From sequence record ON075799: DNA of 64,000 bases; one strand, 5' to 3'. The stretch comes from Escherichia phage vB_EcoM_TH18. The translations under genes were made by a program, and so were the position numbers. The notes beneath the pieces were generated by a model. That model saw only the letters and a list, made by a program, of their open reading frames with translations. It was not told the origin of the DNA and made no database searches. Of this stretch, positions 18 to 38,833 are shown one piece after another; the stretch's first letter is position 1, and every line of letters starts with the position of its first letter.

Positions 18-94
18 TGGTGTGACGGACAGGATTCGAACCTGTGACCACCTAGTCTTCAGCAAGGCACTCTACCAACTGAGTTACCGTCACA
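18..94 (-). tRNA. tRNA-Phe (anticodon GAA)
   Basis: Hand-folded cloverleaf on minus strand: 7-bp acceptor, D-stem actc/gagt, anticodon loop CTGAAGA, T-loop GGTTCGAATCC, CCA encoded. Confidence 0.75.
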
Positions 95-98
95 TAAT

Positions 99-175
99 TG
101 GTGGGCGATGAGGGACTCGAACCCCCAAAATTCAGGTTCTAAGCCTGACATGTATACCAATTCCATCAATCGCCC
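99..175 (-). tRNA. tRNA, anticodon UAG (Leu-like decoding) but short variable loop; atypical
   Basis: Minus strand: acceptor gggcgat/atcgccc, anticodon stem tcagg/cctga with loop CTTAGAA, T-arm with TTCGAGT loop, CCA encoded; type-I length (77 nt) despite Leu-type anticodon. Confidence 0.55.
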
Positions 176-189
176 ATCTATATTAACAG

Positions 190-381
190 TTATGGTTTTC
201 CACGATACACAGAAATAGTTTTCCCATTAGCATTGATAACATAAGCGGTCTGATCCTCAGACAAAAACACTTTTTGATCAATGCCGGAAATAGCTATAGA
301 CTTTTGATGAGCACAATACCCAACAATTTTCCCACAAAAAATTTGTTCATCATTTGGAGAGACGACTTTAACTGTTAACAT
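190..381 (-). CDS. hypothetical small protein (63 aa; ORF 190-462 trimmed to internal ATG)
   Basis: Internal ATG at 381 preceded by AGAGGA; the longer ORF would overlap tRNA-Pro. Confidence 0.4.
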   Translation of the reverse strand: MLTVKVVSPNDEQIFCGKIVGYCAHQKSIAISGIDQKVFLSEDQTAYVINANGKTISVYRGKP

Positions 382-423
382 GGTATCCTCTGTACATTTC
401 TGCTTTGATATGTTTATGTTTGT

Positions 424-501
424 TGGTCTGTCCGGTTGGATTTGAACCAACGACCTGGTCATCCCAAGTGACCCGCGCTACCCAAGCTGCGCTACGGACA
501 G
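424..501 (-). tRNA. tRNA-Pro (anticodon UGG)
   Basis: Minus strand: acceptor ctgtccg/cggacag, D-stem gcgc/gcgc, anticodon stem ggtca/tgacc loop CTTGGGA, T-loop TTCAAAT, CCA encoded. Confidence 0.75.
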
Positions 502-585
502 AGAAATGTAGATTTTAATTGTCCCAGAATCTACTAACTGGTATCGCTGGCTAGGTGATATCTGTGACTTGATTAAGTCAAGAAT

Positions 586-677
586 TGGCGGTTCCTGAAG
601 GATTCGAACCTTCGGTGGGGAGATTCATTCCCAACGGCTTAACAGGCCGTCACCATCGACCACTCGGTCAAAGAACC
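586..677 (-). tRNA. tRNA, type II-like (long variable arm), anticodon loop CTGTTAA (GUU?); identity uncertain
   Basis: Minus strand: acceptor ggttctt/aggaacc, anticodon stem acggc/gccgt, extra stem-loop ggga-atgaatc-tccc, T-arm gaagg-TTCGAAT-ccttc, CCA encoded; 92 nt. Confidence 0.5.
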
Positions 678-686
678 TGAATATTT

Positions 687-763
687 TGGTGGATCTGGTT
701 GGGGTCGAACCAACAATCTCTCGATTAAAAGTCGAGTGACTTAAACCATTTGGCTACAAATCC
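687..763 (-). tRNA. tRNA-Lys (anticodon UUU)
   Basis: Minus strand: acceptor ggatttg/cagatcc, anticodon stem ctcga/tcgag loop CTTTTAA, T-arm gttgg-TTCGACC-ccaac, CCA encoded. Confidence 0.7.
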
Positions 764-780
764 GTTAAATTATCTTTAAA

Positions 781-810
781 ATAGCTAATTACTCGCACAT
801 AATTAGCTAT
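781..810. repeat. perfect 10-bp-stem hairpin (atagctaatt / aattagctat) in inter-tRNA spacer
   Basis: Exact inverted repeat with 10-nt loop read directly from sequence. Confidence 0.6.
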
Positions 811-996
811 ACGCAACAACTCTCCAAGGAGAGCACACTAATGATCGATTACGATTATATGACTAAATTTAGACCATCATAAGTGTTTGGCTTACGCCAG
901 TAAAGAGCGGACTGCTCTGGGGTATCGGTAAGATGGTTGCAGCCATCTACCGAAAAATCACACCAAGCAACTAAACAAGCTACATTAAAGATAACT

Positions 997-1085
997 TGGA
1001 GGAGGCTGACAGAATCGAACTGTCACCATATCTCTACAGCGGGACTGGGTTCAAACCAGCTTGTGCACCATGCACCCCAGCCTCC
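997..1085 (-). tRNA. tRNA-Ser (anticodon UGA)
   Basis: Minus strand: acceptor ggaggct/agcctcc, anticodon loop TTTGAAC, long variable arm, T-arm gacag-TTCGATT-ctgtc, CCA encoded; 89 nt. Confidence 0.7.
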
Positions 1086-1156
1086 AAAGATAGCCTCTGC
1101 CGAGGATATACACCCAACAAAGGAGGCGCTCAGGTCAGAAGAAATCTGAGCCTTAA

Positions 1157-1250
1157 TGGAGGAAGATGCCAGACTTGAACTGGCACACCCATTTCTGGGT
1201 TACTATCTCCTTAGCAGGGAGATCCCTTACCAAATTAGGGTTAATCTTCC
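1157..1250 (-). tRNA. tRNA-Ser (anticodon GCU)
   Basis: Minus strand: acceptor ggaagat/atcttcc, anticodon stem tctcc/ggaga loop CTGCTAA, long variable arm, T-arm gccag-TTCAAGT-ctggc, CCA encoded. Confidence 0.7.
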
Positions 1251-1271
1251 AATACCTTAGTAATTAAAAAC

Positions 1272-1361
1272 TGGTGGAGAAGGAGAGAATCGAACTCTCA
1301 AGCCGTTTTACCAGTCAGCACATTTCCAATGTGCTTTCGTCGCCAATCGATTTGCTTCTCC
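1272..1361 (-). tRNA. tRNA-Ser (anticodon GGA)
   Basis: Minus strand: acceptor ggagaag/cttctcc, anticodon stem gcaca/tgtgc loop TTGGAAA, long variable arm, T-arm gagag-TTCGATT-ctctc, CCA encoded. Confidence 0.65.
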
Positions 1362-1370
1362 GTTTTAACT

Positions 1371-1446
1371 TGGCAGGGGATGGTTGATTCGAACAACCGA
1401 TCACGGGGTCAAAGCCCGTTGCATTAGGCCACTATGCTAATCCCCT
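1371..1446 (-). tRNA. tRNA-Gln (anticodon UUG)
   Basis: Minus strand: acceptor aggggat/atcccct, D-stem gcat/atgc, anticodon stem acggg/cccgt loop CTTTGAC, T-loop TTCGAAT, CCA encoded. Confidence 0.7.
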
Positions 1447-1452
1447 TTTGCA

Positions 1453-1527
1453 CGAGAGTGAGGAATAGAACCTCTTAGTCACTGGTTTTGGAGGCCAGCC
1501 TTCACCCAGTGAAGTTACGCTACTCTC
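1453..1527 (-). tRNA. tRNA-Trp (anticodon CCA)
   Basis: Minus strand: anticodon loop CTCCAAA, T-arm with TTCTATT loop, acceptor gagagt/actctc; CCA not encoded. Confidence 0.6.
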
Positions 1528-1535
1528 ATTAAAAA

Positions 1536-2093
1536 CTATTTTCGAAAAGGACTTATGAAAAATGCCAACATCACTCTCTCTCTTGAAAAAGCTCTGTCTT
1601 CAGGAACCACACTCTTCAGTTTCCAACCGACATAAATTCGCCAGTAAAATTGTTTTCCAAACAATCTAAAAGACGGGACAAACGCGAATACACCCCACGC
1701 ATTGTCATTCCACATCAACAAATAGCCTTGTTGGTTATCCTCCACATCAGAGCTTACATGGAGGTTTCCTTTCCACTTTGTCACAGATGTGATTTCACGT
1801 CCAAGTACGTGATAGGAGAAATTGTAGGCTTTATTTCTCCACAACCAAGCAACTCGTTGTAGGTAAACACCAAAACTTCCTATTTTACGGACTTCTTCCC
1901 ATCTCTCTATGTGTCCTCTATCACCGTCTATAGGATTATCATATGTCTCCATCCACCTGAAAATATAAGGCAGATGCCCTGTCTTCTCATTATAGAACGG
2001 AACAACAAAAGGAGCCAGAATAACACAGAGAACCGACATAACTGGGTCAAGAGGTGCTAACAGGATCCACGATAAATATTTTAAGTATCTCAT
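1536..2093 (-). CDS. hypothetical protein (185 aa, aromatic-rich, hydrophobic N-terminus)
   Basis: Long ORF between tRNA sub-clusters; no recognisable motif. Confidence 0.5.
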   Translation of the reverse strand: MRYLKYLSWILLAPLDPVMSVLCVILAPFVVPFYNEKTGHLPYIFRWMETYDNPIDGDRGHIERWEEVRKIGSFGVYLQRVAWLWRNKAYNFSYHVLGREITSVTKWKGNLHVSSDVEDNQQGYLLMWNDNAWGVFAFVPSFRLFGKQFYWRIYVGWKLKSVVPEDRAFSRERVMLAFFISPFRK

Positions 2094-2320
2094 GCAGGAT
2101 CAAGCCTAGATATAATGTACTGGTTTAAATCTGAATATGGGAAGATACTTTCAAAGATAACCTGTTTAAATCTGAAGCCGCACAAACCGAAAAGTACCTT
2201 CTGACACTCACCAAAAGAGCAATCTTTACCAACTTTTATCACAACCGTATCGGCAATCTGCACACTTTCTATCTCTTTAGATTCATGATGCCGTACTATG
2301 ATTACTTTAGAAACCATCAT
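2090..2320 (-). CDS. hypothetical protein (76 aa)
   Basis: ORF whose stop overlaps the start of the downstream gene by 4 bp (translational coupling pattern). Confidence 0.4.
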   Translation of the reverse strand: MMVSKVIIVRHHESKEIESVQIADTVVIKVGKDCSFGECQKVLFGLCGFRFKQVIFESIFPYSDLNQYIISRLDPA

Positions 2321-2445
2321 ACTCGTCCATATTAAAGCCTTCTACTAAAGATAGTAGATGTCTAGGGTTGGACCGCAAACGCAACCCCATGGAATTTGTT
2401 ACGGTCTTCAGTTGACCCAAGCGGATTTCATTGACATCTTTTAAC

Positions 2446-2520
2446 TGGAGCATCCAGAGGGTATCGAACCCTCGACTTCAGCTTGGAAGGCTGTAGTTTT
2501 CCCAATTAAACTATGGATGC
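2446..2520 (-). tRNA. tRNA-Gly (anticodon UCC)
   Basis: Minus strand: acceptor gcatcca/tggatgc, D-stem gttt/aaac, anticodon loop CTTCCAA, T-arm gaggg-TTCGATA-ccctc, CCA encoded. Confidence 0.7.
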
Positions 2521-2525
2521 ATATT

Positions 2526-2601
2526 TGGTGGGAGTGGTAGGCTCTGCCCCTACGTCCTCTCGATTATCGGTCGAGCGATCTACTAACTGATCTACACTCC
2601 C
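2526..2601 (-). tRNA. tRNA-Ile-like (anticodon GAU), atypical T-loop
   Basis: Minus strand: acceptor gggagtg/cactccc, D-stem gatc/gatc, anticodon stem ctcga/tcgag loop CCGATAA, T-stem gtagg/cctac but loop GGCAGAG lacks TTC; CCA encoded. Confidence 0.5.
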
Positions 2602-2665
2602 AAACTGTACTGGCCCAACAACCACGATTGGAGGGTATCGTCACACATCAAAGCCAGTACAGTTT
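2602..2665. repeat. 13-bp-stem hairpin (aaactgtactggc / gccagtacagttt, 38-nt loop) filling the spacer between two tRNAs
   Basis: Exact inverted repeat read from sequence; no T-loop, so not a tRNA. Confidence 0.55.
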
Positions 2666-2669
2666 TAGT

Positions 2670-2759
2670 TGGTGTGCCGTGATAGAGTCGAACTACCCGA
2701 GTCCCTTTCGAGACAGGAGATTTACAGTCTCCCCCGCTACCCCTACGGTCTAACGACAC
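2670..2759 (-). tRNA. tRNA-Tyr (anticodon GUA), type II
   Basis: Minus strand: acceptor gtgtcgt/acggcac (one G-U), anticodon stem ggaga/tctcc loop CTGTAAA, long variable region, T-arm ggtag-TTCGACT-ctatc, CCA encoded; D-arm irregular. Confidence 0.6.
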
Positions 2760-2760
2760 A

Positions 2761-3108
2761 TTAACCTTGTTTGAATTGAACAATATCCGTCGAGAACGGT
2801 TTAGCTGCCTTAATAGGTGCTTTTTCTGAGTTATCTTTTTCGAGTAACTCTTCGTTTTCCTCATCAAAGTAATCAGAAAGCATCTGCTCACCTTTCTCAA
2901 TAACATAACGAGCTATATTTTCTCTGATATTGTCTTTTGTATTCACATTCTTCATCAAATCCCTAAGAACCTGATGAGCTTCAGGAATCATTGCAATCAG
3001 ATTCGTTTTTAAATCTAGGATATTTTTCTCTAACTGAATTGCATTAGATTCCTCTTTCAGAGGACGACCTTTTCCTCTTCTACGTTTTGTAAGCTGCTTA
3101 GTAGCCAT
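2761..3108 (-). CDS. hypothetical protein (115 aa from internal ATG; acidic C-terminal half)
   Basis: ORF 2761-3333 trimmed to the Met at 3108 because the upstream part overlaps tRNA-Cys. Confidence 0.45.
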   Translation of the reverse strand: MATKQLTKRRRGKGRPLKEESNAIQLEKNILDLKTNLIAMIPEAHQVLRDLMKNVNTKDNIRENIARYVIEKGEQMLSDYFDEENEELLEKDNSEKAPIKAAKPFSTDIVQFKQG

Positions 3109-3193
3109 TTTAAAACCCCACTTAATGATATTATCAAATAAAAACATATCTGTCAAGTGGTATTTTAACATATTTACCAAGAAATTGAAAGTT

Positions 3194-3270
3194 TGGAGCA
3201 CGGTGTCGGACTTGAACCGACATATATCTGTTTTGCAGACAGATCCGTAACCAAATTCCAGCAACCGTGC
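3194..3270 (-). tRNA. tRNA-Cys (anticodon GCA)
   Basis: Minus strand: acceptor gcacggt/accgtgc, anticodon stem tctgt/acaga loop CTGCAAA, T-arm with TTCAAGT loop, CCA encoded. Confidence 0.7.
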
Positions 3271-3356
3271 AATAAGTACCCCAGGTAGAGAACCTATAGA
3301 GTGGGTCTTACGAGCCGCGCTGACGATTCTCAAGTTGGGGTTAATCTGGTCGAGGA

Positions 3357-3433
3357 GACAGGATTCGAACCTGTGACCTACGGCTTAGAAGGCCGCTGCT
3401 CTATCCAACTGAGCTACACCCCGAAAATAAGAA
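3357..3433 (-). tRNA. tRNA-Arg (anticodon UCU)
   Basis: Minus strand: canonical D-arm tagctcagttggatagagc, anticodon stem gcggc/gccgt loop CTTCTAA, T-arm acagg-TTCGAAT-cctgt, CCA encoded. Confidence 0.7.
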
Positions 3434-3623
3434 TGCTTTATAGTGTATGGTTACTCAACCTCACTCCAACTTCCACAGTTGGTGCTCTACGAGCATGACT
3501 ACGTTTGAAATCAACGTTGCGCACCGATAGCTTTCTCACGCATTGTATGCCTCATTCCCAACAAATGCTGATCAGACATTTATATCGAATAATATAAGCT
3601 AATACACTATAAAACAAACTTGT

Positions 3624-3720
3624 GGCTGGGTGATGGAATCGAACCACCTATGTATTCAACGGCTTCCCCGTCTATTTTCAGGATTATAAATCCTCGCCCT
3701 TGCCAAAGGGCTTACCCAGC
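3624..3720 (-). tRNA. tRNA-like gene, unusually long (about 97 nt); anticodon loop TTTATAA (UAU?) with about 30-nt insertion before the T-arm
   Basis: Minus strand: acceptor gctgggt/acccagc, D-stem gccc/gggc, 4-bp anticodon stem agga/tcct, extra hairpin acgg-ggaag-ccgt, T-arm ggtgg-TTCGATT-ccatc; CCA not encoded. Confidence 0.4.
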
Positions 3721-3722
3721 AT

Positions 3723-3797
3723 TGGTGCTCGCAGCAGGTTTCGAACCTGCAACCCCCTGCTTACAAGGCAGGTGCTCTACCGTTGAGCTATACGAGC
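3723..3797 (-). tRNA. tRNA-Thr (anticodon UGU)
   Basis: Minus strand: acceptor gctcgta/tgcgagc, D-stem gctc/gagc, anticodon stem cctgc/gcagg loop CTTGTAA, T-arm gcagg-TTCGAAA-cctgc, CCA encoded. Confidence 0.75.
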
Positions 3798-4162
3798 AAT
3801 AAGACATTGCTTCCGATTAACAGCCTTGAGGCTTTACAGACCATATCTTGTGAGCCATAACCTGTGCCAAGGATTTCAGATGATAAACGAAATTTTATCT
3901 TTCAAGAGTCAACTTTCAAGTTTCATCTTTTACATTTAACCATTGACCTTTATTGTATGAACTTTTACTTAGTGGAAACAACAAGGCATCTTCGTGTGCC
4001 TCGCTGCATCTATGTCCTGTATTATCCTCATACATATACGATACATGGTGGGGGATATTTAACCTCCAACCCCCAGGAGGCAAGATGATGTAAACTTCGT
4101 TAATCAAAAGCAATGTTTTAAATTTCAAAACAAAGGAACGATAATGATATTATCAGAGCCTT

Positions 4163-4810
4163 TTAGAGAGAGTGCTCAATCTCAATTTCTGTCTTAGCGT
4201 TTGACTCAGACAACGCAAAATCAACGTTAGACAAGAAATCTTCAATCTCTTCTTCAAGAGAACGAATCTTAGAAGCCAGTTCAAGAGGATCCACAACCGA
4301 TGGTGTGTTCATCATTCGAATAGGAGCTTCCACAGTCTTAATCTGCTCTGCATCTGGCGCTTTATCACGTTGGATATATGGCGCTCTTGCATTTTCAAGT
4401 TTATCTTCCAGAGATTTTTCTTCTTTTGCCAGAAGAAGCTGTGCAGAAGCACGCTGTGCACAAAGTTTGTTTAACAACTCTTGTTTAAAGCAAATCGTCC
4501 GTTTGCGTTCGATTGCCTCAGCAACTGTCATAGACACATTACCAATTTTGACAATTGTCTCAGCATTAGACTTAACAATTTTTGCTTTCAGTTCATCACG
4601 CACTGCCAAGAGGTCTTGCAGACTTTGATAGTCGTTGATCGCAGATTTCTTAAAATCATCAACAGAGCCGATATAACCCGGAATCTTACAATTATTCTCA
4701 GTTCCTTTTGCAATCTTAATACAATCAAGATTGTAGATACGCTTATTGATCTTATCTTCAATTTTAGAGATAGAAGCAAGTGCACGAGTTACGGAAATCT
4801 TAGTAGACAT
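4163..4810 (-). CDS. hypothetical protein (215 aa, predicted coiled-coil, K/E-rich)
   Basis: Long ORF; composition only. Confidence 0.55.
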   Translation of the reverse strand: MSTKISVTRALASISKIEDKINKRIYNLDCIKIAKGTENNCKIPGYIGSVDDFKKSAINDYQSLQDLLAVRDELKAKIVKSNAETIVKIGNVSMTVAEAIERKRTICFKQELLNKLCAQRASAQLLLAKEEKSLEDKLENARAPYIQRDKAPDAEQIKTVEAPIRMMNTPSVVDPLELASKIRSLEEEIEDFLSNVDFALSESNAKTEIEIEHSL

Positions 4811-4883
4811 GCGATCTCTCCTATGTAAATCAGCTTTGATAAAGTAACTATCCAGAAAAACAAAAACTATGTCAAGAAAAATT

Positions 4884-5075
4884 TTAATCTTTTACAGCAT
4901 CTTTTATAGAATCACAAAGATCTTGAACAACATCAGATGTCGGTGACAAAATCATCTCGTCGGCTGCTGCTATAGCATCTGATGCTAAATCAACAAACGG
5001 AGTTGTTACCGCAGAAGTCACTTCAACAGCCGTTATTGTTACTTCGCTTGCAATCTTAAGCAAAGATCCTATCAT
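4884..5075 (-). CDS. hypothetical protein (63 aa)
   Basis: Small ORF downstream of the tRNA-Met gene. Confidence 0.3.
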   Translation of the reverse strand: MIGSLLKIASEVTITAVEVTSAVTTPFVDLASDAIAAADEMILSPTSDVVQDLCDSIKDAVKD

Positions 5076-5151
5076 AATCTCAACCCTCCTGAATATCCGT
5101 GATTCCCTTTATTTAACGACGCTGGCTCACGGTGGCACTCTCGTCAATAAA

Positions 5152-5475
5152 CTATTTTTTAGTTTTCTTACCGTTTTCTACAGAAATGCTTGTTTTCTGT
5201 TTCGCTTCTCGTTCGCGCTTTGTTTTCCCAGTGCGAATACGATATGAAGCAGAAATAACTTCACCACCAATGACACGAGACACAGATTCGTAATACATTT
5301 CAGTATTACCGTCTTCATCTTTGCGTTTTTTCAGAACTGCTACAGTTTGCGTTTTACCACCAAGGCGCACATCGTGCGGTGCAGAATGTGTCTGCGTGGA
5401 TTTTGATCCAAACTGAAAAGGTTGCTTTATCGCCTCGATAGCTGACACCTTTTTAGCAGACTGTTTCTTAGCCAT
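5152..5475 (-). CDS. hypothetical basic protein (107 aa from internal ATG, Lys-rich)
   Basis: Internal ATG at 5475 preceded by GGAGG; Lys-rich termini. Confidence 0.45.
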   Translation of the reverse strand: MAKKQSAKKVSAIEAIKQPFQFGSKSTQTHSAPHDVRLGGKTQTVAVLKKRKDEDGNTEMYYESVSRVIGGEVISASYRIRTGKTKREREAKQKTSISVENGKKTKK

Positions 5476-5527
5476 TAAGTTTTCTCCTCCGAAAACAATA
5501 AACATAGTTTATTTCGTGTGCCACATT

Positions 5528-5604
5528 TGGTGGCCCCTGCTGGACTTGAACCAGCGACCAAGCGATTATGAGTCACCTGCTCTATCCAACTGAGCTAAGG
5601 GGCC
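5528..5604 (-). tRNA. tRNA-Met (anticodon CAU; elongator-type or Ile2-type)
   Basis: Minus strand: acceptor ggcccct/aggggcc (G1-C72 paired), canonical D-arm, anticodon loop CTCATAA, T-arm gctgg-TTCAAGT-ccagc, CCA encoded. Confidence 0.7.
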
Positions 5605-8292: not shown

Positions 8293-9102
8293 TTAAAAAT
8301 TTTCTGTCCAGTCGTAGTACGCATAGATTTCGTCAACGCCACCGTTGAGAATAAATTCTTTCCCACGAGAGAAAATCCCATGCGTGACATACAAGATAAC
8401 ACGTTTAGCACCAGCAGCTTTCAAGGCTTGAGCTAAGTTTGTAAACGTAAACCCACCATCGCAGATATCATCAACAATCAGGCACATCTTCCCATCGACA
8501 TCACCAAACACTGTTGTGCCTGTGATTGCCCCTGTTCCCACATCACGGATTTTACCAGCTTCAACCACAGATAGTTCCAAGGCATCAGCTACCTTCTGGG
8601 TCTTCTTGCGTGCACCTGCATCTGGAGCAACCAACACAAGCGATTCGTCCGTAAGCAGATCAAAATCAAACTTCATGTTCAAGAACAATTCAGTCTGAGA
8701 ACGAATTTTCACGTTATCAAGCAGTGCTGCGGATACGTCACTGTGTGGGTCATCGACGATGACTTTGTGGAAACCCAGCGAGTTAATCATTGTGGCAAAG
8801 ACTTTCACCGACAGAGCTTCACCAGGGTTCATAACTCGGTCTTGTCGAGCATACGGGATGTACGGCAGGTGTAAAACCTTTTCCACACCAACATCCAAAT
8901 TGCCAAGACGATTGACTGCATCAACAAGCAACGCAAGACACATCACATCTTGGGAGTGCTTAATGCGAGCGAAGATATCCACAAAACCAATCGAACCCTT
9001 AGGGATATAGTGCATATCGATCTTCACCTGCTCCTCACCACCACTGAAGGTAAAATGGTCAACTGGAACATGCAACTTGTTCAAACTCAAACGAATATTC
9101 AT
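8293..9102 (-). CDS. prs: ribose-phosphate pyrophosphokinase-like (PRPP synthetase)
   Basis: 269 aa; PRPP-binding loop VDDICDGGFTF (type I phosphoribosyltransferase fold); next to NAMPT. Confidence 0.75.
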   Translation of the reverse strand: MNIRLSLNKLHVPVDHFTFSGGEEQVKIDMHYIPKGSIGFVDIFARIKHSQDVMCLALLVDAVNRLGNLDVGVEKVLHLPYIPYARQDRVMNPGEALSVKVFATMINSLGFHKVIVDDPHSDVSAALLDNVKIRSQTELFLNMKFDFDLLTDESLVLVAPDAGARKKTQKVADALELSVVEAGKIRDVGTGAITGTTVFGDVDGKMCLIVDDICDGGFTFTNLAQALKAAGAKRVILYVTHGIFSRGKEFILNGGVDEIYAYYDWTENF

Positions 9103-30251: not shown

Positions 30252-30444
30252 ACACCCCTCGCTTGTGCCTGTACATTGCCAGAGGCCATACAGAACTCAC
30301 TATAAAGCATTTCCATGCCCAACCCCATGCAGTTTTTGGTGCATAGACCTGTTCAAGTGTTTTACTATTCTCCATCTCTGCGGTATGCACAAACCATACC
30401 GCAATATACAATGTAACTGTAATGTAGATAAAGCTATTAATCAT
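30226..30444 (-). CDS. small membrane protein (72 aa)
   Basis: Hydrophobic segments. Confidence 0.4.
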   Translation of the reverse strand: MINSFIYITVTLYIAVWFVHTAEMENSKTLEQVYAPKTAWGWAWKCFIVSSVWPLAMYRHKRGVYEEKTGTA

Positions 30445-31498
30445 TCATCTTATCCCAACACATTTGTTGCGCTGTCATCAAGACGTCAGCAGCAAAATCA
30501 AGGTCTGTTGACTTCGGTAAATGCGTGCTCTTGTACAGAGTGTTACGAATATAATCATCCTTCTCTTCTGCCCAAGCCAAGAGCTTCTCCAAAGACCATG
30601 CACCATTCCTGATTGCAAGAAGCTCCTGAGCATCAGGTCTTTTTACTAAGACTTTACCTTCTGCTAGGATCTCCTCAGCCATACGCATCAATCTTACCAA
30701 ATGGAGAGCATGTTTGCAATCGTACCCGTACTTTTCTTCTAAGTCATGCCGAACCAGATTTCTGTTTTTAACCCATGCCCAGTAGTTCTTATGTTTTTCC
30801 TTTGCTTGTTTATGCTCCTCTGCCAGATATTTAACAATTAAAATTGGCTTACGTCTCTTATCCTCGTCAGAGAACTGCTCGTAAGGAACTTTACGAATAG
30901 AACCATCAGAGTTAAACAAGCCAGCATTGTCGTGTGTTCCGATCACGCCATAGATATTATCACCCATGGGTAAAAAGACACACAACTTGTTAAGATCATC
31001 CAACATTTTCTGGAAGTCTTTGTGTTTTGTAAGATTATCATCCATCCACGAGTGTGTCAAGCGCATGAACTCTTTTTGTGTTGGTTGCTCTTTAGGTTGC
31101 GGGTTATTAATCCATTTATTATGGCCTTTGATACGCTTAAGTTGCGCCATCGCATACCCAGAAAAAGTAAAAGCAACTTTGCTGGATAGGAGTTTTGGCG
31201 CTTGCTCGCGTAGGTACTCGTAAACATCTGAAGTTTGCAGAATGTCACCTCTATCAACAAACATAAGCTCGATGATGTTTGGGTTCATATCAACGAACAA
31301 CTTCATGTAGTTTGTTAGCTCATACAGCTTACCATCCTCTTCATCAATAAGGGTCATTTCTCTGTCAACGAAAAATGGGGTAAGAATGCTTTTAGGCTCT
31401 GCACAATAAATTCCGCGAATATCCACATCGGATGTTGGTAAGTTAGTTCCATATGCAATGCTGCCGGAGTAACAGCGCATTAGTTCTAGTTTCTTCAT
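30437..31498 (-). CDS. nucleotidyltransferase-fold protein (Pol-beta superfamily, GS...DxD motif), 353 aa
   Basis: N-terminal YSGSIAYGTNLPTSDVDIRGIY matches the minimal nucleotidyltransferase signature; substrate unknown. Confidence 0.5.
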   Translation of the reverse strand: MKKLELMRCYSGSIAYGTNLPTSDVDIRGIYCAEPKSILTPFFVDREMTLIDEEDGKLYELTNYMKLFVDMNPNIIELMFVDRGDILQTSDVYEYLREQAPKLLSSKVAFTFSGYAMAQLKRIKGHNKWINNPQPKEQPTQKEFMRLTHSWMDDNLTKHKDFQKMLDDLNKLCVFLPMGDNIYGVIGTHDNAGLFNSDGSIRKVPYEQFSDEDKRRKPILIVKYLAEEHKQAKEKHKNYWAWVKNRNLVRHDLEEKYGYDCKHALHLVRLMRMAEEILAEGKVLVKRPDAQELLAIRNGAWSLEKLLAWAEEKDDYIRNTLYKSTHLPKSTDLDFAADVLMTAQQMCWDKMND

Positions 31499-31857
31499 TC
31501 TCGTACCTTTGTGCTTTTTCTTACATTATCCCAAAAATCAAGGATATTTTGGTATCGGATCTTGTCTTCCATATATTCAGCCTCATCACGAAGATCGCAT
31601 ACATGGTCTATTAAGGCACACACTTCATTATAGTGTTCTGTATCACTTGTGATGTGCTTAATCATACAAGATCCTGCTTTCCACTTTGAAAGTGAGTATC
31701 TCAGATTATCATCTTTCTCTGTGGGGGACGCGTCAACTAATATTTTTGCCTTATTGCCTTTTATCTTTTGTACCACCCCTCTGCGCAATTCATTATTACC
31801 CCAATAGATAAATACTGTATCGCCAACAAACAGTTTTGTTCCGCTTGCGTCTCTCAT
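31495..31857 (-). CDS. hypothetical protein (120 aa)
   Basis: ORF coupled to the downstream gene. Confidence 0.5.
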   Translation of the reverse strand: MRDASGTKLFVGDTVFIYWGNNELRRGVVQKIKGNKAKILVDASPTEKDDNLRYSLSKWKAGSCMIKHITSDTEHYNEVCALIDHVCDLRDEAEYMEDKIRYQNILDFWDNVRKSTKVRE

Positions 31858-31858
31858 T

Positions 31859-32203
31859 TTAAGACCCTAGTAAGAAGAAATAATAAATGGTTATTGCTGC
31901 AAAGTAAGTAATCCCGCTCAATAACCCAAACCAACATTGCTTGGCAGTATAAACTTTCTCTGACAAAAGATTATTCCCTGCTACAATATGCCTACACAAC
32001 CAAACTCCCATCAAGAATCCACCTATTAAGCCACCCGTCGGAGGTGTTAACATGGTGATCATTGCAAGACCTTCAAGCAAAGAGAATATTAAAAAACATG
32101 GGAATGCTTTTCTTTTACATTTAAAACCTTTTCCATCGACACAAACTTTGGCTAGGCTTGCTATGCAAAAGACCGTCCAAAGCACATACAATGTATAAAC
32201 CAT
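31859..32203 (-). CDS. membrane protein (114 aa)
   Basis: Multiple hydrophobic segments. Confidence 0.5.
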   Translation of the reverse strand: MVYTLYVLWTVFCIASLAKVCVDGKGFKCKRKAFPCFLIFSLLEGLAMITMLTPPTGGLIGGFLMGVWLCRHIVAGNNLLSEKVYTAKQCWFGLLSGITYFAAITIYYFFLLGS

Positions 32204-32267: not shown

Positions 32268-32765
32268 CTACTCACCTTTTAGCTTAAAACTTTTCAACGT
32301 TTTGATAAAGTCTTTCTCTGCTGGTGTGTAAGTGTGAACTAAACCTGTTTCTTCACAGGTGTAGGTATCATTAACCTCCATTGCATGTTGAGGGATAAAT
32401 GTACCTTCAGGAACAGGCTTATATTCTGGGTTGTAGATAAACTCCGGCAGCACAACAGCCACAGCAGTCATTGCTCCATTCAAGGCTTCCTCTTCTTCAC
32501 GCCACCAAGCATATGGATAAGTTTTGAGAGGCATAAGTTGAGCAAGAAAATCTTGGAGTACTGACTGATAACCACCATTTAAAATAATGATGGTCTTATC
32601 TTTTTCTCTCCAACATTTCAACCAGTGGTGTGCGGTTAACTCCTCTGGCGCTCCTGCTGGTTGGTCATACCATGTCATGAGTTCCGCAATAGCATGTGCC
32701 GATTGGATACCTGCATGGATACCGGAGATATACTGATTAACAACACAATACATTCTTGTTTTCAT
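32268..32765 (-). CDS. hypothetical protein, possible PTH2-like peptidyl-tRNA hydrolase fold (165 aa)
   Basis: Weak motif resemblance (GIHAGIQSAHAIAE versus remembered PTH2 GKxAAQCSHAA); needs a profile search. Confidence 0.35.
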   Translation of the reverse strand: MKTRMYCVVNQYISGIHAGIQSAHAIAELMTWYDQPAGAPEELTAHHWLKCWREKDKTIIILNGGYQSVLQDFLAQLMPLKTYPYAWWREEEEALNGAMTAVAVVLPEFIYNPEYKPVPEGTFIPQHAMEVNDTYTCEETGLVHTYTPAEKDFIKTLKSFKLKGE

Positions 32766-33043
32766 TTTTCTTTCTTCCTAAAGATTATTCTATCTTCACT
32801 AAAAATTTCCTGTAACCCAGCAGCTATCAGTGCAAATATTGCTACCCACCATACAACTAACAGGAGTACCCCAACAAGCAAATCTCTACCTGTGATCTGT
32901 TGCTCAACCCTGTAGGTAATAATAAAGAAAGCTACGGATACTAAAGCACCAACAAAGAAGTAGATAAACACTTCAGTCATTATCTCTTTTCTCCAAGTAC
33001 CTTTTTTACCATAAGGGCCACAACGTAAATTCCCACAAGACAA
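32762..33043 (-). CDS. membrane protein (93 aa)
   Basis: Hydrophobic segments. Confidence 0.45.
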   Translation of the reverse strand: MSCGNLRCGPYGKKGTWRKEIMTEVFIYFFVGALVSVAFFIITYRVEQQITGRDLLVGVLLLVVWWVAIFALIAAGLQEIFSEDRIIFRKKEK

Positions 33044-33291
33044 ATCCAGAATGTGAAAATAATAGGTAAAAGCATTACCGCAAGCGTTATAAACAGTGGT
33101 CCTGCAACAGTGACGAATGCTGTTCCAAGCAACAACAAAAATACTACATATCTAACCGTTTCATCCACCTTCTTAAGATACACACCTAAACACACAGAAG
33201 ACAATAGGAATGATAGAATGGACAGCAACAGATACCAATTATCAATGAAAATGACAATTGGACTAGCAACATTTTCTAACCACCACATCAT
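32980..33291 (-). CDS. membrane protein (103 aa)
   Basis: Hydrophobic segments. Confidence 0.45.
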   Translation of the reverse strand: MMWWLENVASPIVIFIDNWYLLLSILSFLLSSVCLGVYLKKVDETVRYVVFLLLLGTAFVTVAGPLFITLAVMLLPIIFTFWICLVGIYVVALMVKKVLGEKR

Positions 33292-33305
33292 ATATTCATA
33301 CCTCT

Positions 33306-34562
33306 TTAGAATAACATATCCCTGCTAATTGCTTTACGAATAGCATCAATACGGGCTACTCGCACAGCTTCACCAATCTCTTTACCCTTCTTACCTTTTT
33401 CCAGAAGAGGGTTTGTGATAGCTTTAGAATCAACTTTTGTCATAGCGTCATAGGCTTCCAACAAAATATGACCTTGAAGGTAAGGTTTATGCCTAAAATC
33501 ACCACCTCTTCCTTTAGCATCACAATAACATGCATCTGCAAGTGTGTAAACCTTCATTTTCTGATCAGCTTGTCCAGCAGCTTCAAATATTTTCATGATG
33601 CTTTTTGGTTTCAAACCGTTGTTACCATCTGTGGGAGAGATGGCGTGCACTTTTGTGTGATTTTCTGCAACATATTTTGCCGTGTCACGATAGATATTAT
33701 AAATCTTTAACCTTTCGCACAAAGATTGGATAACATCCGCACCAGCTTTTTCATGACCATGCAAATTACCATTGTTCTTGTAAGTTACAGCTTTGCCAAA
33801 ATCATGGCAAAGCACAGCAAACTTGGTCAGTGGATCAGCTTCTAATTCATCGGCAACCCGTAACGCTAGAATTGTATGAGTGTAAGCATCCCCTTCTGGG
33901 TGGTGTTCTTTAGGTTGTTGTACACGACGCAGGGCTTCCAGTTCAGGAAGCTCGCCAATACGTCCCATATTGACAGCAAAAGATCTGAAATAATCACTCT
34001 TTAAGGCTTTCAACATTTCATTCCATTTACGCTCGGCGCTTATTTCTGCCAAAGAGTGTCGGTTGTCATAAGCCAGTTTAAAAGTCTCTGGGTGGATATG
34101 CCATTCTTCCCCAAGCTGGGCTTTAAATCTAAACAGGCGTAGAATACGTAACGGGTCTTCAATAAATGCCTGTGATGTATGACGTAATGTTTTAAGTCCT
34201 AAATCAACCTGGCCACCAAAAGGATCAATAATCTCACCACTGTCAACATCCATCGCCATGGAGTTGATGGTTAGATCTCTACGTGCCAAATCCTCTTCCA
34301 GAGTTACATCTGGGCTAAAGCATACCTCAAATCCTTTATGGCCTTCGCCTGTTTTTCTTTCTGTGCGTGCAAGAGCGTACTCTTCTTTTGTTTCTGGGTG
34401 AAGATAAACTGGAAAAGATGCGCCAACTTGTGTGAACCCTCTTTTCAACATCTCTTCATGCGTAGCTCCAACAACAACATAATCACGGTCTGATAATTCA
34501 CGACCCAATAATTTATCTCTAACCGCCCCACCTACCAAATATACCTTCATTTCTTCACCCAC
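33306..34562 (-). CDS. cca: tRNA nucleotidyltransferase (CCA-adding enzyme) with HD domain
   Basis: YLVGGAVRD and RRDLTINS motifs of class II nucleotidyltransferases; C-terminal HD-like histidines; 418 aa. Confidence 0.85.
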   Translation of the reverse strand: MGEEMKVYLVGGAVRDKLLGRELSDRDYVVVGATHEEMLKRGFTQVGASFPVYLHPETKEEYALARTERKTGEGHKGFEVCFSPDVTLEEDLARRDLTINSMAMDVDSGEIIDPFGGQVDLGLKTLRHTSQAFIEDPLRILRLFRFKAQLGEEWHIHPETFKLAYDNRHSLAEISAERKWNEMLKALKSDYFRSFAVNMGRIGELPELEALRRVQQPKEHHPEGDAYTHTILALRVADELEADPLTKFAVLCHDFGKAVTYKNNGNLHGHEKAGADVIQSLCERLKIYNIYRDTAKYVAENHTKVHAISPTDGNNGLKPKSIMKIFEAAGQADQKMKVYTLADACYCDAKGRGGDFRHKPYLQGHILLEAYDAMTKVDSKAITNPLLEKGKKGKEIGEAVRVARIDAIRKAISRDMLF

Positions 34563-34873
34563 ATGTTCATATAATTAACAATATCTTTTATGGTTCTCTT
34601 GCCGTCCAGTGGATAAACCATGTCATCGCTCATCCCACCGTGTTTTAGCATTGCTACCAGCCTAGTATATACCCCTTTTGGTCTTTTGCAAGTTCTTTTC
34701 TTCCATTTATGACCGTCTGGGGAGTACTCCTTATCTTCAAGAGAGATATGAAGTATATCTCCTATAAACTCTTTTGCCTGTGTGCTGTAAAGTGGACGGT
34801 AGAATATGTAGAATTTCATCGCTTGCTCCTTTGTTGTAATAACAATACCAGTGCAAGCCACCTGTGTCAACAC
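34547..34873 (-). CDS. hypothetical protein (108 aa or shorter)
   Basis: ORF only. Confidence 0.45.
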   Translation of the reverse strand: MLTQVACTGIVITTKEQAMKFYIFYRPLYSTQAKEFIGDILHISLEDKEYSPDGHKWKKRTCKRPKGVYTRLVAMLKHGGMSDDMVYPLDGKRTIKDIVNYMNMWVKK

Positions 34874-34908
34874 ATAAAGAAAAACCCGCTAAAAAGCGGG
34901 TTAATCTC

Positions 34909-35190
34909 TTACCATGTTACAAATATGTTTATAGATGTGCCTTGTTTTGTTGGTTGATAGCTAATAATATCCACCATGAAACCACCACCACGAAGATCGC
35001 CAACAATATGAGGCAGGTAATCACCCATTTCCTCCGGGAACTGTAGTGACATACCCATTCCAAATAGACCTTTCTTTGCACATTGGCTTATCCCGTTTAC
35101 TATCTGGTCGTACAGTTCCACCAGAGATTTTGGGGTATCCTTCTTTGACTTGTTCGCTATCTCTCTCATTTTGCTGGCGACATTTGCCAT
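34909..35190 (-). CDS. hypothetical protein (93 aa)
   Basis: AAGAGG ribosome-binding site; overlaps the 3' end of the methyltransferase ORF in another frame. Confidence 0.45.
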   Translation of the reverse strand: MANVASKMREIANKSKKDTPKSLVELYDQIVNGISQCAKKGLFGMGMSLQFPEEMGDYLPHIVGDLRGGGFMVDIISYQPTKQGTSINIFVTW

Positions 35191-35701
35191 CTTTACCTCT
35201 TAAAAAATAGAAAGGCTTCAAATTAAGGGTGTTCTTTTTGTCCCACACATACCATGCATACCCGCTTCCATCTGTCTTACCATCCTCTGTAAAAGATGGT
35301 CTTTGAGAAAGTACAAGCAGAGATGTTGGGGGATTATCTTGCCACCACTCCCACCTTTTCATACTTTCAAGAAAACCAAGACGTAGAAGCATGATAACGA
35401 CATCAGCATCACGTAGAGCTTTCTCAACAAACTCTTGAGCCAGTGAGTATGGAGGGTTAGAGATTATGATGTCTGTGTGATTATACTCTGTTGTCAGATA
35501 ATCAACACCTTGGCGTATTTCTCCCCAAGCACTTCCGATTGGTAGAAAATTATAAATCCTACCGGAAGCTCTGCACGGCTCCATATATTTCTTTTTCATA
35601 TCTATGGGGATGACTTCCAACAGGGCTTCAACAGCCCATACTGGGGTTTCATACGTGTCGTACTCTCTCCGATCACCCTTCCTTTTCAGAGGTGCTACCA
35701 T
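35021..35701 (-). CDS. DNA amino-methyltransferase (N6-adenine or N4-cytosine), NPPY motif
   Basis: IISNPPY catalytic motif and upstream SAM-binding-like segment; C-terminal 50 aa low-complexity, possible frameshift. Confidence 0.6.
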   Translation of the reverse strand: MVAPLKRKGDRREYDTYETPVWAVEALLEVIPIDMKKKYMEPCRASGRIYNFLPIGSAWGEIRQGVDYLTTEYNHTDIIISNPPYSLAQEFVEKALRDADVVIMLLRLGFLESMKRWEWWQDNPPTSLLVLSQRPSFTEDGKTDGSGYAWYVWDKKNTLNLKPFYFLRGKDGKCRQQNERDSEQVKEGYPKISGGTVRPDSKRDKPMCKERSIWNGYVTTVPGGNG

Positions 35702-36648
35702 CAGTTACCAACCTTTTCGATAGTTTCTTTCAAAATATCTTCGGAAACACTAAGAATTTGATTCAGTAGAATGTCTCTTTTGTGTGGTATTACTCTGGTC
35801 TCATTCTCACCATATTGCAGGTTGTTTAATTGCGCAAGAATTTCTTTTAGCTCGTCAACGTTAAAACCATCAAAATCACGGTCGTTCAAAGTTGACATAT
35901 TGAAACTAAAATTCTCGCCACCAACGGTAATGTTCATAAGCATTTCTTGTACCTCACCCTTAGGAACGGCATCTATGTTTTTGGGTGTGACATTCTTAAC
36001 CACTGTTGTTTTTGTGGTTTTTAGGCCAGTTACATACCGCAAACCTTGCTGTTCTCTTCGGATATTCTCTTTATCCAGTAAAGCGGCTTCAGTGCGTACC
36101 AAAATATCTTCTTCTGTCAGCCAAACTTCCCCACCACCTTTAATGGTTTCCATTTCTTCAGGTGTTAGCACATCCTTATAGAAATGATCGAAGACACGAT
36201 CAAAGTAGTCTTTTTGGAACACAGCTTGGCGGTAAATGTTGGATCCGTCCCCGCCTATCCAACCCTGATAGTTATGGAACATAAAAATTGTCAATGGTGA
36301 GACAGTTCTGCGCTCACATGCCAACCATAATACTGTTCCTGCTGAACACACTTGGCCTTCTGCATGAACAATAACCATGGCCTGACTTTCTCGGATGGCG
36401 CTAACGTATGCCATAGCAATAGCAACATCCCCACCCAATGTATTTATAATAATGCGTACTGTATCCTCTGGATTGGCTGCACGAATTGTTTGTAATCGCT
36501 CTTGGTGGTCTTCCAACCAATGCATCTCATTAACGTATATGACATGATTATTAGCATGAGCACGATATGTAAAAACGTTAGCAGTCTCTACACGGTTAAC
36601 ATTAAAACCATTATTCAGTTTTTGCATTACAACCTTCTCCGTTTTCAA
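35701..36648 (-). CDS. ClpP/S14-like serine protease family protein (315 aa)
   Basis: INTLGGDV and GQVCSAGT segments resemble ClpP active-site regions. Confidence 0.5.
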   Translation of the reverse strand: MKTEKVVMQKLNNGFNVNRVETANVFTYRAHANNHVIYVNEMHWLEDHQERLQTIRAANPEDTVRIIINTLGGDVAIAMAYVSAIRESQAMVIVHAEGQVCSAGTVLWLACERRTVSPLTIFMFHNYQGWIGGDGSNIYRQAVFQKDYFDRVFDHFYKDVLTPEEMETIKGGGEVWLTEEDILVRTEAALLDKENIRREQQGLRYVTGLKTTKTTVVKNVTPKNIDAVPKGEVQEMLMNITVGGENFSFNMSTLNDRDFDGFNVDELKEILAQLNNLQYGENETRVIPHKRDILLNQILSVSEDILKETIEKVGN

Positions 36649-38047: not shown

Positions 38048-38833
38048 TTATGATGCCATTGGTGTGTAAATACCTTTATCTCTGTCTTTCAACAATCCCT
38101 TGGCGATCTCCTTGACAACACCACCACGGACTACATCCTGTAGTTGATTAAATTGAACAATACCCACACCAGAAATATTATGTCTGTGGAGAAAATCTTC
38201 AACCCATTCCAAACCAGAGACACCACGTATATCTTTTTGACTTTCATCCCCCATGATGACAAGAGTGCAATTATCTGAAATGCGAGTTACAATACTCAGC
38301 ATTTCTTCTGGAGTGCTTTGTTGTGCCTCGTCAATCAGCAGGAAGCTGTTTTCATCAAACGATCTTCCTCTAATACTTTCCAACTCTTGCACCTCGATAC
38401 GTCCATGCAATCCATCTTTCAATGAATTGTAATACGCCCCATCACCCATTCTTTTACGAATTGTGTCGAGCATATTTCTTACGTAAGGATATAGTTTCTC
38501 CAGAGTAGAACCAGGTTTGAAGCCTGAGGTCTTTCCCGTTTGCACATATGGTCTTGCCACAATGATTTTATCTATCTCATTTTTCCTGAGAAGATCAGCA
38601 GCATATGCAGAGGCGAGATATGTCTTTCCTGTTCCAAAGATCCCTTTTGCTATAATGATGTTACAGGTCTTAAGTTTTTGGAGGTAATCTTGTTGCTTTC
38701 TATTCATGGCAACAAGTGCTGGGGCGCTGTTTCTATCTTCATCAAACTTAGGATTGTATTTCATCTTTCTTTCAGCGCGTGCTTTCTTCCTTGCGGCAAG
38801 TTTCAAAGCACGCGTCTCTTTACTTCTTCCCAT
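38048..38833 (-). CDS. phoH: PhoH-like ATPase
   Basis: Walker A GTGKTYLA and overall PhoH-like layout; 261 aa. Confidence 0.8.
   Translation of the reverse strand: MGRSKETRALKLAARKKARAERKMKYNPKFDEDRNSAPALVAMNRKQQDYLQKLKTCNIIIAKGIFGTGKTYLASAYAADLLRKNEIDKIIVARPYVQTGKTSGFKPGSTLEKLYPYVRNMLDTIRKRMGDGAYYNSLKDGLHGRIEVQELESIRGRSFDENSFLLIDEAQQSTPEEMLSIVTRISDNCTLVIMGDESQKDIRGVSGLEWVEDFLHRHNISGVGIVQFNQLQDVVRGGVVKEIAKGLLKDRDKGIYTPMAS

Follow-up and report, generated by a model that had tools for sequence, protein, structure and literature searches.

The 64,000-nucleotide stretch of Escherichia phage vB_EcoM_TH18 analysed here (sequence record ON075799; hereafter the window) encodes, on its minus strand at 32268-32765, a protein of 165 amino acids (aa) that structure prediction and sequence comparison together support as a divergent relative of the archaeal and eukaryotic peptidyl-tRNA hydrolase Pth2, at the level of fold or superfamily. 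The gene lies in a string with those for a CCA-adding enzyme, contained in a 418-aa open reading frame (ORF) at 33306-34562 on the same strand, and for a nucleotidyltransferase of the RlaP family. We think it probable that the 165-aa protein deacylates peptidyl-tRNA or N-blocked aminoacyl-tRNA and, with the CCA enzyme, its HD domain and RlaP, keeps tRNA acceptor ends functional in infection. The window belongs to a relative of Escherichia phage Av-05 (Vequintavirinae, Avunavirus), and its segment 30000-36000 is 100% identical with Escherichia phages 18-1-2, 19-1-2 and 24-2-1 and 91% identical with Av-05.

It is the predicted fold, rather than sequence alone, that settles the relationship to Pth2; the sequence evidence is weak but consistent with it. 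The AlphaFold2 (AF2) model of the 165-aa protein is confident (predicted local distance difference test score 92.7, predicted template-modelling score 0.87) and shows the alpha/beta fold of Pth2/Bit1. The top seven Foldseek matches in the PDB are all Pth2, each with probability 1.00 (1xty, 1q7s, 2zv3 and 3erj, representing S. solfataricus, human Bit1/PTRH2, MJ0051 and AF2095), and structural matches are confined to Pth2 structures and the bacterial Pth2-like protein Atu0240 (PDB 2GAX). The latter is the second-best structural match, with a lower score than Pth2; its identity to the phage protein is only 9-13%, and none of the family members scanned matches its Pfam family. In BFVD, once members of the family itself are set aside, many of the nearest entries are viral proteins that bear the name peptidyl-tRNA hydrolase, the protein of phage RaK2 being one.

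In sequence, the N-terminal GIHAGIQSAHAIAE of the 165-aa protein aligns with the PTH2 motif GKGKIAAQVAHAAV so that Q-x-A-H-A is in register, and this register is identical in HMMER, hhalign and MAFFT alignments. PTH2 is also the sole Pfam family that recurs among the relatives, being matched by 38 of 50 close and 74 of 150 distant members (best E=6.6e-6). Profile-profile comparison of the family with PTH2 by hhalign reached a probability of 72% (E=3.4e-5, 78 columns) with a deeper alignment, having climbed from 18% with shallow profiles through 36%. The true Pth2 comparison sequences were taken from the PDB, and the PTH2 side of this comparison stayed shallow, at 8 sequences after redundancy filtering, the 120 listed homologues being highly redundant. 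An earlier note on this DNA, made from its letters alone, had remarked on a weak likeness of this N-terminus to the PTH2 active-site region. That suspicion is borne out: the motif aligns in register, profile searches return PTH2 recurrently rather than no relationship at all, and the structure prediction that the note had proposed as a check gives a model matching Pth2.

The ORF is a real conserved gene with 74 close homologues (90% clustering), and the clade to which it belongs comprises 2,551 representative clusters (50% identity) at E<=1e-3. Relatives occur in 215 sequenced phages, which include rV5-like, Rheinheimera, Vibrio and RaK2/PBECO4-like jumbo phages, and in at least 374 IMG/VR stretches. 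The window protein matches PHROG 3668 ("hydrolase") with E=3e-47 (residues 1-164 against profile positions 1-151 of 152), and one UniRef entry names the family "Aminoacyl-tRNA hydrolase". All residues of the clade signature (R4, Y6, N10, Y12, G19, Q21, H24, W52, K57, T58, G64, G65, E90 and T100) are present in it. Q21 and H24, which correspond to Q22 and H25 of S. solfataricus Pth2, are invariant in 150 of 150 members, as is E90, which aligns with D86 in the DAGxT motif of Pth2; the family-invariant T100 aligns with the PTH2-invariant T98 of strand 4.

What the clade has in common with Pth2 (PF01981; 1XTY of S. solfataricus, 1WN2 of P. horikoshii, 2ZV3 of M. jannaschii and 1Q7S of human PTRH2/Bit1) is Q-x-x-H-A where helix 1 begins, a Trp that precedes strand 2, an acidic side chain in the place of Asp86, a Gly and a Thr within strand 4, and [L/F]KL in the C-terminal strand. 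The differences are an identity of about 17-22%, a score below the Pfam threshold, a loop of the form G-I-[H/Q]-x-G, Glu in place of Asp, a 2-residue deletion, and an insertion of ~40 residues. In the AF2 model this insertion (~108-147) carries a beta-hairpin and precedes the last helix and strand of the PTH2 core. A further difference lies in the hosts: the clade protein comes from phages that infect bacteria, and bacteria have the unrelated Pth1 as their own enzyme.

The gene neighbourhood also points to the tRNA 3' end. RlaP, at 30437-31498, is the third conserved partner and was overlooked in the earlier note. In Rheinheimera phage Barba19A, whose RlaP neighbour scores 33.6 bits (above the cutoff of 23), and in Vibrio phage 11895-B1, whose third gene is confirmed as RlaP at 28.4 bits, the CCA, PTH2-like and RlaP genes follow one another directly. 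The rV5-like phages Ro1 and Av-05 have the identical order with small genes interspersed. We surveyed 80 diverse IMG/VR loci, falling into 58 clusters at >=60% identity, with a flank of 6 kb on each side. A CCA enzyme was found within this distance at 19 loci (12 clusters), and RlaP at 17 (10 clusters). A PF09414 RNA ligase was present at 9 loci (7 clusters), an Rv2179c-like 3'-5' exoribonuclease at 11 (6 clusters), and tRNA genes, up to 28 per locus, at 18 (14 clusters). At least one of these five neighbours occurred at 50 of the 80 loci and in 35 of the 58 clusters. All 19 CCA neighbours are on the same strand as the PTH2-like gene and no more than 2 kb away. The tie is tightest for His-type loci, the subtype of the window protein (CCA enzyme in 13 of 21, RlaP in 11 of 21); Gln-type members are more often beside RNA ligase, exoribonuclease and tRNA arrays. 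Within the window itself, tblastn with few queries, and hence limited sensitivity, found no RNA ligase, PseT-type kinase or Rv2179c-like exoribonuclease.

Other neighbours characterize the Gln-type members. A small protein of ~86 aa with no Pfam match is encoded directly 3' of Gln-type PTH2-like genes at 16 loci (for example L061:6536-6874, plus strand), and may be that subgroup's own partner. Gln-type genes also have PhoH and thymidylate synthase as repeated neighbours, at 11-12 IMG/VR loci; the window has a PhoH-like ATPase (PF02562, E=5.9e-48) at ~38111-38800 on the minus strand.

Judged from its sequence, the product of 33306-34562 is a full-length class II CCA-adding and repair enzyme of the E. 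coli type, with an HD domain. Its Pfam domains are the PolyA_pol head (E=1.3e-21), PolyA_pol_RNAbd (E=1.2e-6) and HD (E=7.4e-8), and it matches PHROG 2244 ("tRNA nucleotidyltransferase") with E=1.2e-144. The match to NCBIfam PRK10885, "multifunctional CCA addition/repair protein", is end-to-end (model positions 1-404 of 409), and its 414 bits are just under the equivalog cutoff of 451. The poly(A) polymerase model PcnB gives only 78.5 bits against a cutoff of 305.65. GGAVRD, DRD, RRD and EDPLR motifs and an HD dyad are visible in the translation, and the head domain can be aligned to 1MIV. This agrees with the earlier note, which had placed a full-length class II enzyme with an HD domain here, separated from the 165-aa gene by two small membrane-protein genes; the latter correspond to the hydrophobic ORFs 32980-33291 and 32762-33043. 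The ORF limits it gave also stand, except for the start: the longest ORF begins at GTG 34562, whereas the gene most likely starts at ATG 34550, because this codon has an ATGA overlap with the upstream stop, the Av-05 annotation has 414 aa, and the PRK10885 match begins at residue 5.

E. coli Cca and the phage enzyme are collinear over their full length, with the same head, RNA-binding and HD domains and the same GGxVRD, DxD, RRD, EDxxR and HD-dyad motifs, and in both organisms the tRNA genes already encode CCA. The phage enzyme differs in its sub-cutoff PRK10885 score and in the location of its gene amid small membrane-protein genes. Read off the sequence, the 3' ends of all 15 phage tRNA genes include CCA, and therefore the phage enzyme would serve the repair of 3' ends, not their maturation. 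These 15 tRNAs are likely clients of the module. As a separate observation, the CCA gene beside the PTH2-like gene of Vibrio phage 11895-B1 (locus L003, 2804-4985) is annotated as two joined pieces with an HNH endonuclease ORF between them, which suggests that this tRNA nucleotidyltransferase gene carries an intron or an intein-like insertion.

In the mechanism that we favour, the PTH2-like enzyme would cut the ester bond between a peptidyl or N-blocked aminoacyl group and the 3'-terminal adenosine, yielding free tRNA. The PTH2-like, CCA and RlaP genes would be co-expressed. The CCA enzyme would restore missing CCA nucleotides, its HD domain may strip 2',3'-phosphates by analogy with E. coli Cca, and RlaP would put one or two nucleotides onto damaged RNA 3'-OH ends. 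Together, the three enzymes could keep host tRNAs and the 15 phage tRNAs chargeable, for instance after peptidyl-tRNA drop-off or attack by host toxins or nucleases. RlaP enzymes add 1-2 nucleoside monophosphates to the 3'-OH of RNAs, with a preference for damaged ones (PMC12776372). Homology of fold, conservation of residues and conservation of gene linkage are observed; the co-transcription and the biological role are inferred, and the coupling of the enzymes is read from gene linkage only.

A number of observations count against this interpretation. The Pfam PTH2 match of the 165-aa protein (PF01981, profile positions 3-97 of 115) has 15.9 bits and E=0.016, under the gathering threshold of 23 bits. 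A single-sequence phmmer search of PDB sequences returned only noise (a mannanase and KcsA, E>0.4), a family-profile search of the same sequences found M. jannaschii Pth2 (2zv3) at a non-significant E=1.5, with Q-x-x-HA in register, and an NCBIfam scan of the protein gave no match. The GKGK loop of Pth2 is absent: the family loop has no conserved Lys or Arg, and among 218 sequences its variable position is His in 105, Gln in 98 and never Lys (Q 96 and H 51 in alignment A3), the equivalent of the GKGK-loop Lys being H17 or G19 depending on the alignment. The Thr of DAGxT (T90) sits in the 2-residue deletion, or opposite a variable Glu, Gln or Asp, and the Asp is replaced by Glu, which is acidic but has a longer side chain. 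Near the PTH2-like gene, 30 of the 80 IMG/VR loci (~37%) have no RNA-related neighbour within 6 kb. The neighbour counts were set against an estimate of random placement, not against matched random loci. That estimate, however, speaks for the linkage: a single-copy gene at a random place in a genome of 100-350 kb would land within a given 12 kb in fewer than about 10% of cases, and it would not time and again lie next to the PTH2-like gene on the same strand.

K18, D86 and T90 of S. solfataricus Pth2 are reportedly implicated in catalysis, with the second Lys of GKGK (K18) required (Fromant et al., Biochemistry, 2005). If these roles are right, the clade retains a conservative substitute for one of the three residues and has lost the other two, so it would be a distinct Pth2-fold family with a remodelled site and not canonical Pth2. 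Because the 165-aa protein falls short of the Pfam threshold and is without the GKGK-loop Lys and the DAGxT Thr, its peptidyl-tRNA hydrolase activity, including the substrate and the ester-hydrolase chemistry, is something that we infer.

Given an active site that has been remodelled and a gene so closely tied to those of two nucleotide-adding enzymes, a variant is conceivable in which the fold and the tRNA 3'-end target are as proposed and the chemistry is not. The protein would then remove a plain or mischarged aminoacyl group, a toxin adduct, or the terminal nucleotide or nucleotides together with a block, and the CCA enzyme and RlaP would rebuild the end ("strip and rebuild"). We regard this as rather unlikely, although several facts would fit it. 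The catalytic-loop Lys and the Thr are lost, yet R4, Y6, N10, Y12, G19, Q21, H24, K57, T58, E90 and T100 are fixed across 150 diverse members, and a pure ester hydrolase would have no need of such tight linkage to two enzymes that extend RNA 3' ends by nucleotides. In eukaryotes, ANKZF1/Vms1 removes the CCA end by cleavage and TRNT1 puts CCA back. Rabbit reticulocyte peptidyl-tRNA hydrolase gives peptidyl-AMP and tRNA-CC (PMC4929431). However, the Q-x-x-H, the acidic residue and the strand Thr held in common with Pth2 favour conserved ester-hydrolase chemistry, and the linkage to the CCA gene is equally explained by a common client, the tRNA acceptor end. The Pth2 fold is also not known to have nuclease activity, which counts against cleavage.

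In a bolder proposal, the CCA, PTH2-like and RlaP string would be a dedicated phage module against host defence, stripping tRNA acceptor ends that host toxins have corrupted and then building them up again. The non-canonical His/Gln-Glu site would take off the aminoacyl group, or the terminal nucleotide, that carries the block, and the HD phosphatase, CCA-adding and RlaP activities would restore CCA-3'OH. Candidate toxins are GNAT acetyltransferases (TacT, AtaT), toxSAS/CapRel enzymes that pyrophosphorylate A76, MenT/AbiE-type nucleotidylating enzymes, and acceptor-stem nucleases. We offer this proposal as speculation and judge it unlikely to be right.

The 165-aa protein could instead be catalytically inactive or act outside tRNA metabolism: it might bind tRNA ends as an accessory or chaperone to the CCA enzyme or to RlaP, or hydrolyse some unrelated small-molecule ester. 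The missing canonical Lys and Thr would suit such a role, the function of Atu0240, which shares the fold, is not established, and several of the 30 loci lacking an RNA-related neighbour are near PhoH and thymidylate synthase instead. But the polar residues Q21, H24, E90 and T100 are strictly invariant at 30-45% family identity, as is typical of active enzymes, and genes acting on RNA ends are the dominant recurrent neighbours. We see only a slim chance of a non-catalytic or non-tRNA role, since those polar residues are invariant.

That the likeness to PTH2 is a chance motif match in an unrelated ORF, as sub-threshold or empty single-sequence searches and the 18% of the shallow profile-profile comparison might hint, is extremely improbable given seven Pth2 chains at Foldseek probability 1.00, one register across three alignment programs and independent Pfam PTH2 matches in 74 of 150 members. 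A chance ORF or chance motif match was rejected on these structural matches and on the numbers of homologues (74; 2,551 clusters).

The genes from ~34870 down to 30437 all run in the same direction and abut or overlap, with ATGA stop/start overlaps present (Table 1). One of these couples the start codon of the PTH2-like gene with the stop codon of the preceding membrane-protein gene. The product of the ORF 32762-33043 is probably 72 aa, from ATG 32980, and that of 34547-34873 is probably ~90 aa, from an internal ATG; the Av-05 counterpart of the latter is annotated as 273 bp, and its stop codon in the window overlaps the start codon of the CCA gene. The DUF7205 gene has an equivalent place in Ro1; the family is confined to rV5-like phages and was seen at 11 of the 80 IMG/VR loci. 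The hairpin and promoter-like site at 34842-34902 could mark the start of the transcription unit bearing the module. This boundary is suggestive only, because the promoter scan was not above shuffle expectation (24 sites found, 21.8 expected from shuffles).

Table 1. Features of the module and the tRNA genes in the window, in order of position
Feature	Position	Strand	Basis
15 tRNA genes (Phe, Leu, Pro, Asn, Lys, three Ser, Gln, Gly, Tyr, Cys, Arg, Thr, Met)	18..5604	-	ARAGORN
RlaP-family Pol-beta nucleotidyltransferase, 353 aa	30437..31498	-	PF10127 50.7 bits (cutoff 23); PHROG 388 E=1.3e-76
DUF7205 protein, 120 aa, between the PTH2-like gene and RlaP	31495..31857	-	Pfam DUF7205 E=1.8e-32
Small membrane protein, 114 aa, directly 3' of the PTH2-like gene	31859..32203	-	PHROG 16835 "membrane protein" E=3e-40; Av-05 annotation
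PTH2-fold "hydrolase", 165 aa, His-type, phage-specific PTH2-like clade	32268..32765	-	
Small, strongly hydrophobic membrane protein	32762..33043	-	PHROG 14512 "membrane protein" E=2.2e-17; Av-05: 219-bp membrane-protein gene
Small hydrophobic protein, 103 aa, just 3' of the CCA gene	32980..33291	-	Several hydrophobic stretches; weak PHROG 22743 and 29214 matches
Class II CCA-adding/repair enzyme, C-terminal HD domain, 414 aa from ATG 34550	33306..34550	-	Pfam, PHROG 2244, PRK10885, motifs
Small conserved protein, first gene past the terminator-like site	34547..34873	-	PHROG 7526 E=2.1e-44, aligned from residue 19
Sigma-70-like promoter TTGACA-17-TATTGT with extended -10 TG, right after the hairpin	34870-34842	-	Consensus scan
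Terminator-like GC-rich hairpin AACCCGC-TTTT-GCGGGTT, then a T run	34902-34883	-	Consensus scan

Two further minus-strand genes lie 5' of the module: a Dam-like DNA methyltransferase immediately next to it (35021-35701; PHROG 799, E=3.1e-80) and then a ClpP-like protease (35701-36648; PHROG 5410 "ATP-dependent protease", E=1.6e-125). Both genes have the same place in Ro1 and Av-05. Elsewhere in the window, again on the minus strand, a phosphoribosyltransferase of the NAPRTase/NAMPT family (6514-8229; PF04095, E=2.1e-28) and a ribose-phosphate pyrophosphokinase, or phosphoribosyl pyrophosphate synthetase (8293-9102), are a phage nicotinamide adenine dinucleotide (NAD)-salvage pair. Such pairs are linked to countering NAD-depleting defences.

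The module is of interest because phages of bacteria here encode the archaeal and eukaryotic type of peptidyl-tRNA hydrolase, not the Pth1 of their hosts, and in this lineage its gene is strung together with those of two enzymes for the rebuilding of RNA 3' ends. Provided that the PTH2-like protein is active, a phage with 15 tRNA genes would bring its own kit for acceptor-end upkeep, which bears on the survival of tRNA-targeting defences and toxins. The clade, with thousands of clusters beyond the capture of Pfam PF01981 and an altered active-site loop, is a cheap and well-defined biochemical target. RefSeq and PHROGs label its members generically as "hydrolase"; in rV5-like phages, this label and "hypothetical protein" could be refined to "Pth2-like (putative peptidyl-/aminoacyl-tRNA hydrolase)".

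The link of this phage family to PTH2 is already on record, so the window adds another member and not a new relationship. ORF188 of Klebsiella phage RaK2 was described as Pth2 in 2013 (PMC3622015). Gp174 of Klebsiella phage Muenster belongs to the family (E=1.4e-26 to the family hidden Markov model, and a tblastn match), and its depositors annotated it as "putative peptidyl-tRNA hydrolase, HHpred 2ZV3_G 97%". For jumbo phages, Iyer et al. (2021) proposed that PTH2, in company with RlaP, CCA enzymes and RNA ligases, frees tRNAs from peptidyl linkages while jammed ribosomes are being rescued (PMC7824862). The window protein shares the clade and this proposed role in tRNA and ribosome rescue with the jumbo-phage proteins of RaK2, Muenster and the latter study. 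It differs in being encoded by a non-jumbo (~120 kb), rV5-like phage, in an identity of ~31% to the jumbo-phage members, and in being of the His type within a fixed CCA, PTH2-like, RlaP string, whereas the Muenster gene is near polynucleotide kinase and ligase genes. Three points go modestly beyond the literature that we found: the three genes form a fixed cassette in non-jumbo phages that are unrelated to one another, the clade as a whole has lost the GKGK Lys and the DAGxT Thr, and the phage tRNAs have encoded CCA.

Among other systems, eukaryotic ANKZF1-ELAC1-TRNT1 is a coupled rescue-and-repair system. Bacterial Pth1 is a functional analogue, with an unrelated fold and no homology: it releases the peptidyl or N-acyl-aminoacyl group, and this extends to reversal of TacT damage, since it undoes TacT-type N-acetylation of aminoacyl-tRNA (PMC9241777). 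PrfH-RtcB offers another functional analogy, in which a peptidyl hydrolase is coupled to enzymes that repair RNA ends, in some cases together with a Pol-beta nucleotidyltransferase, although its components are unrelated to those of the phage module.

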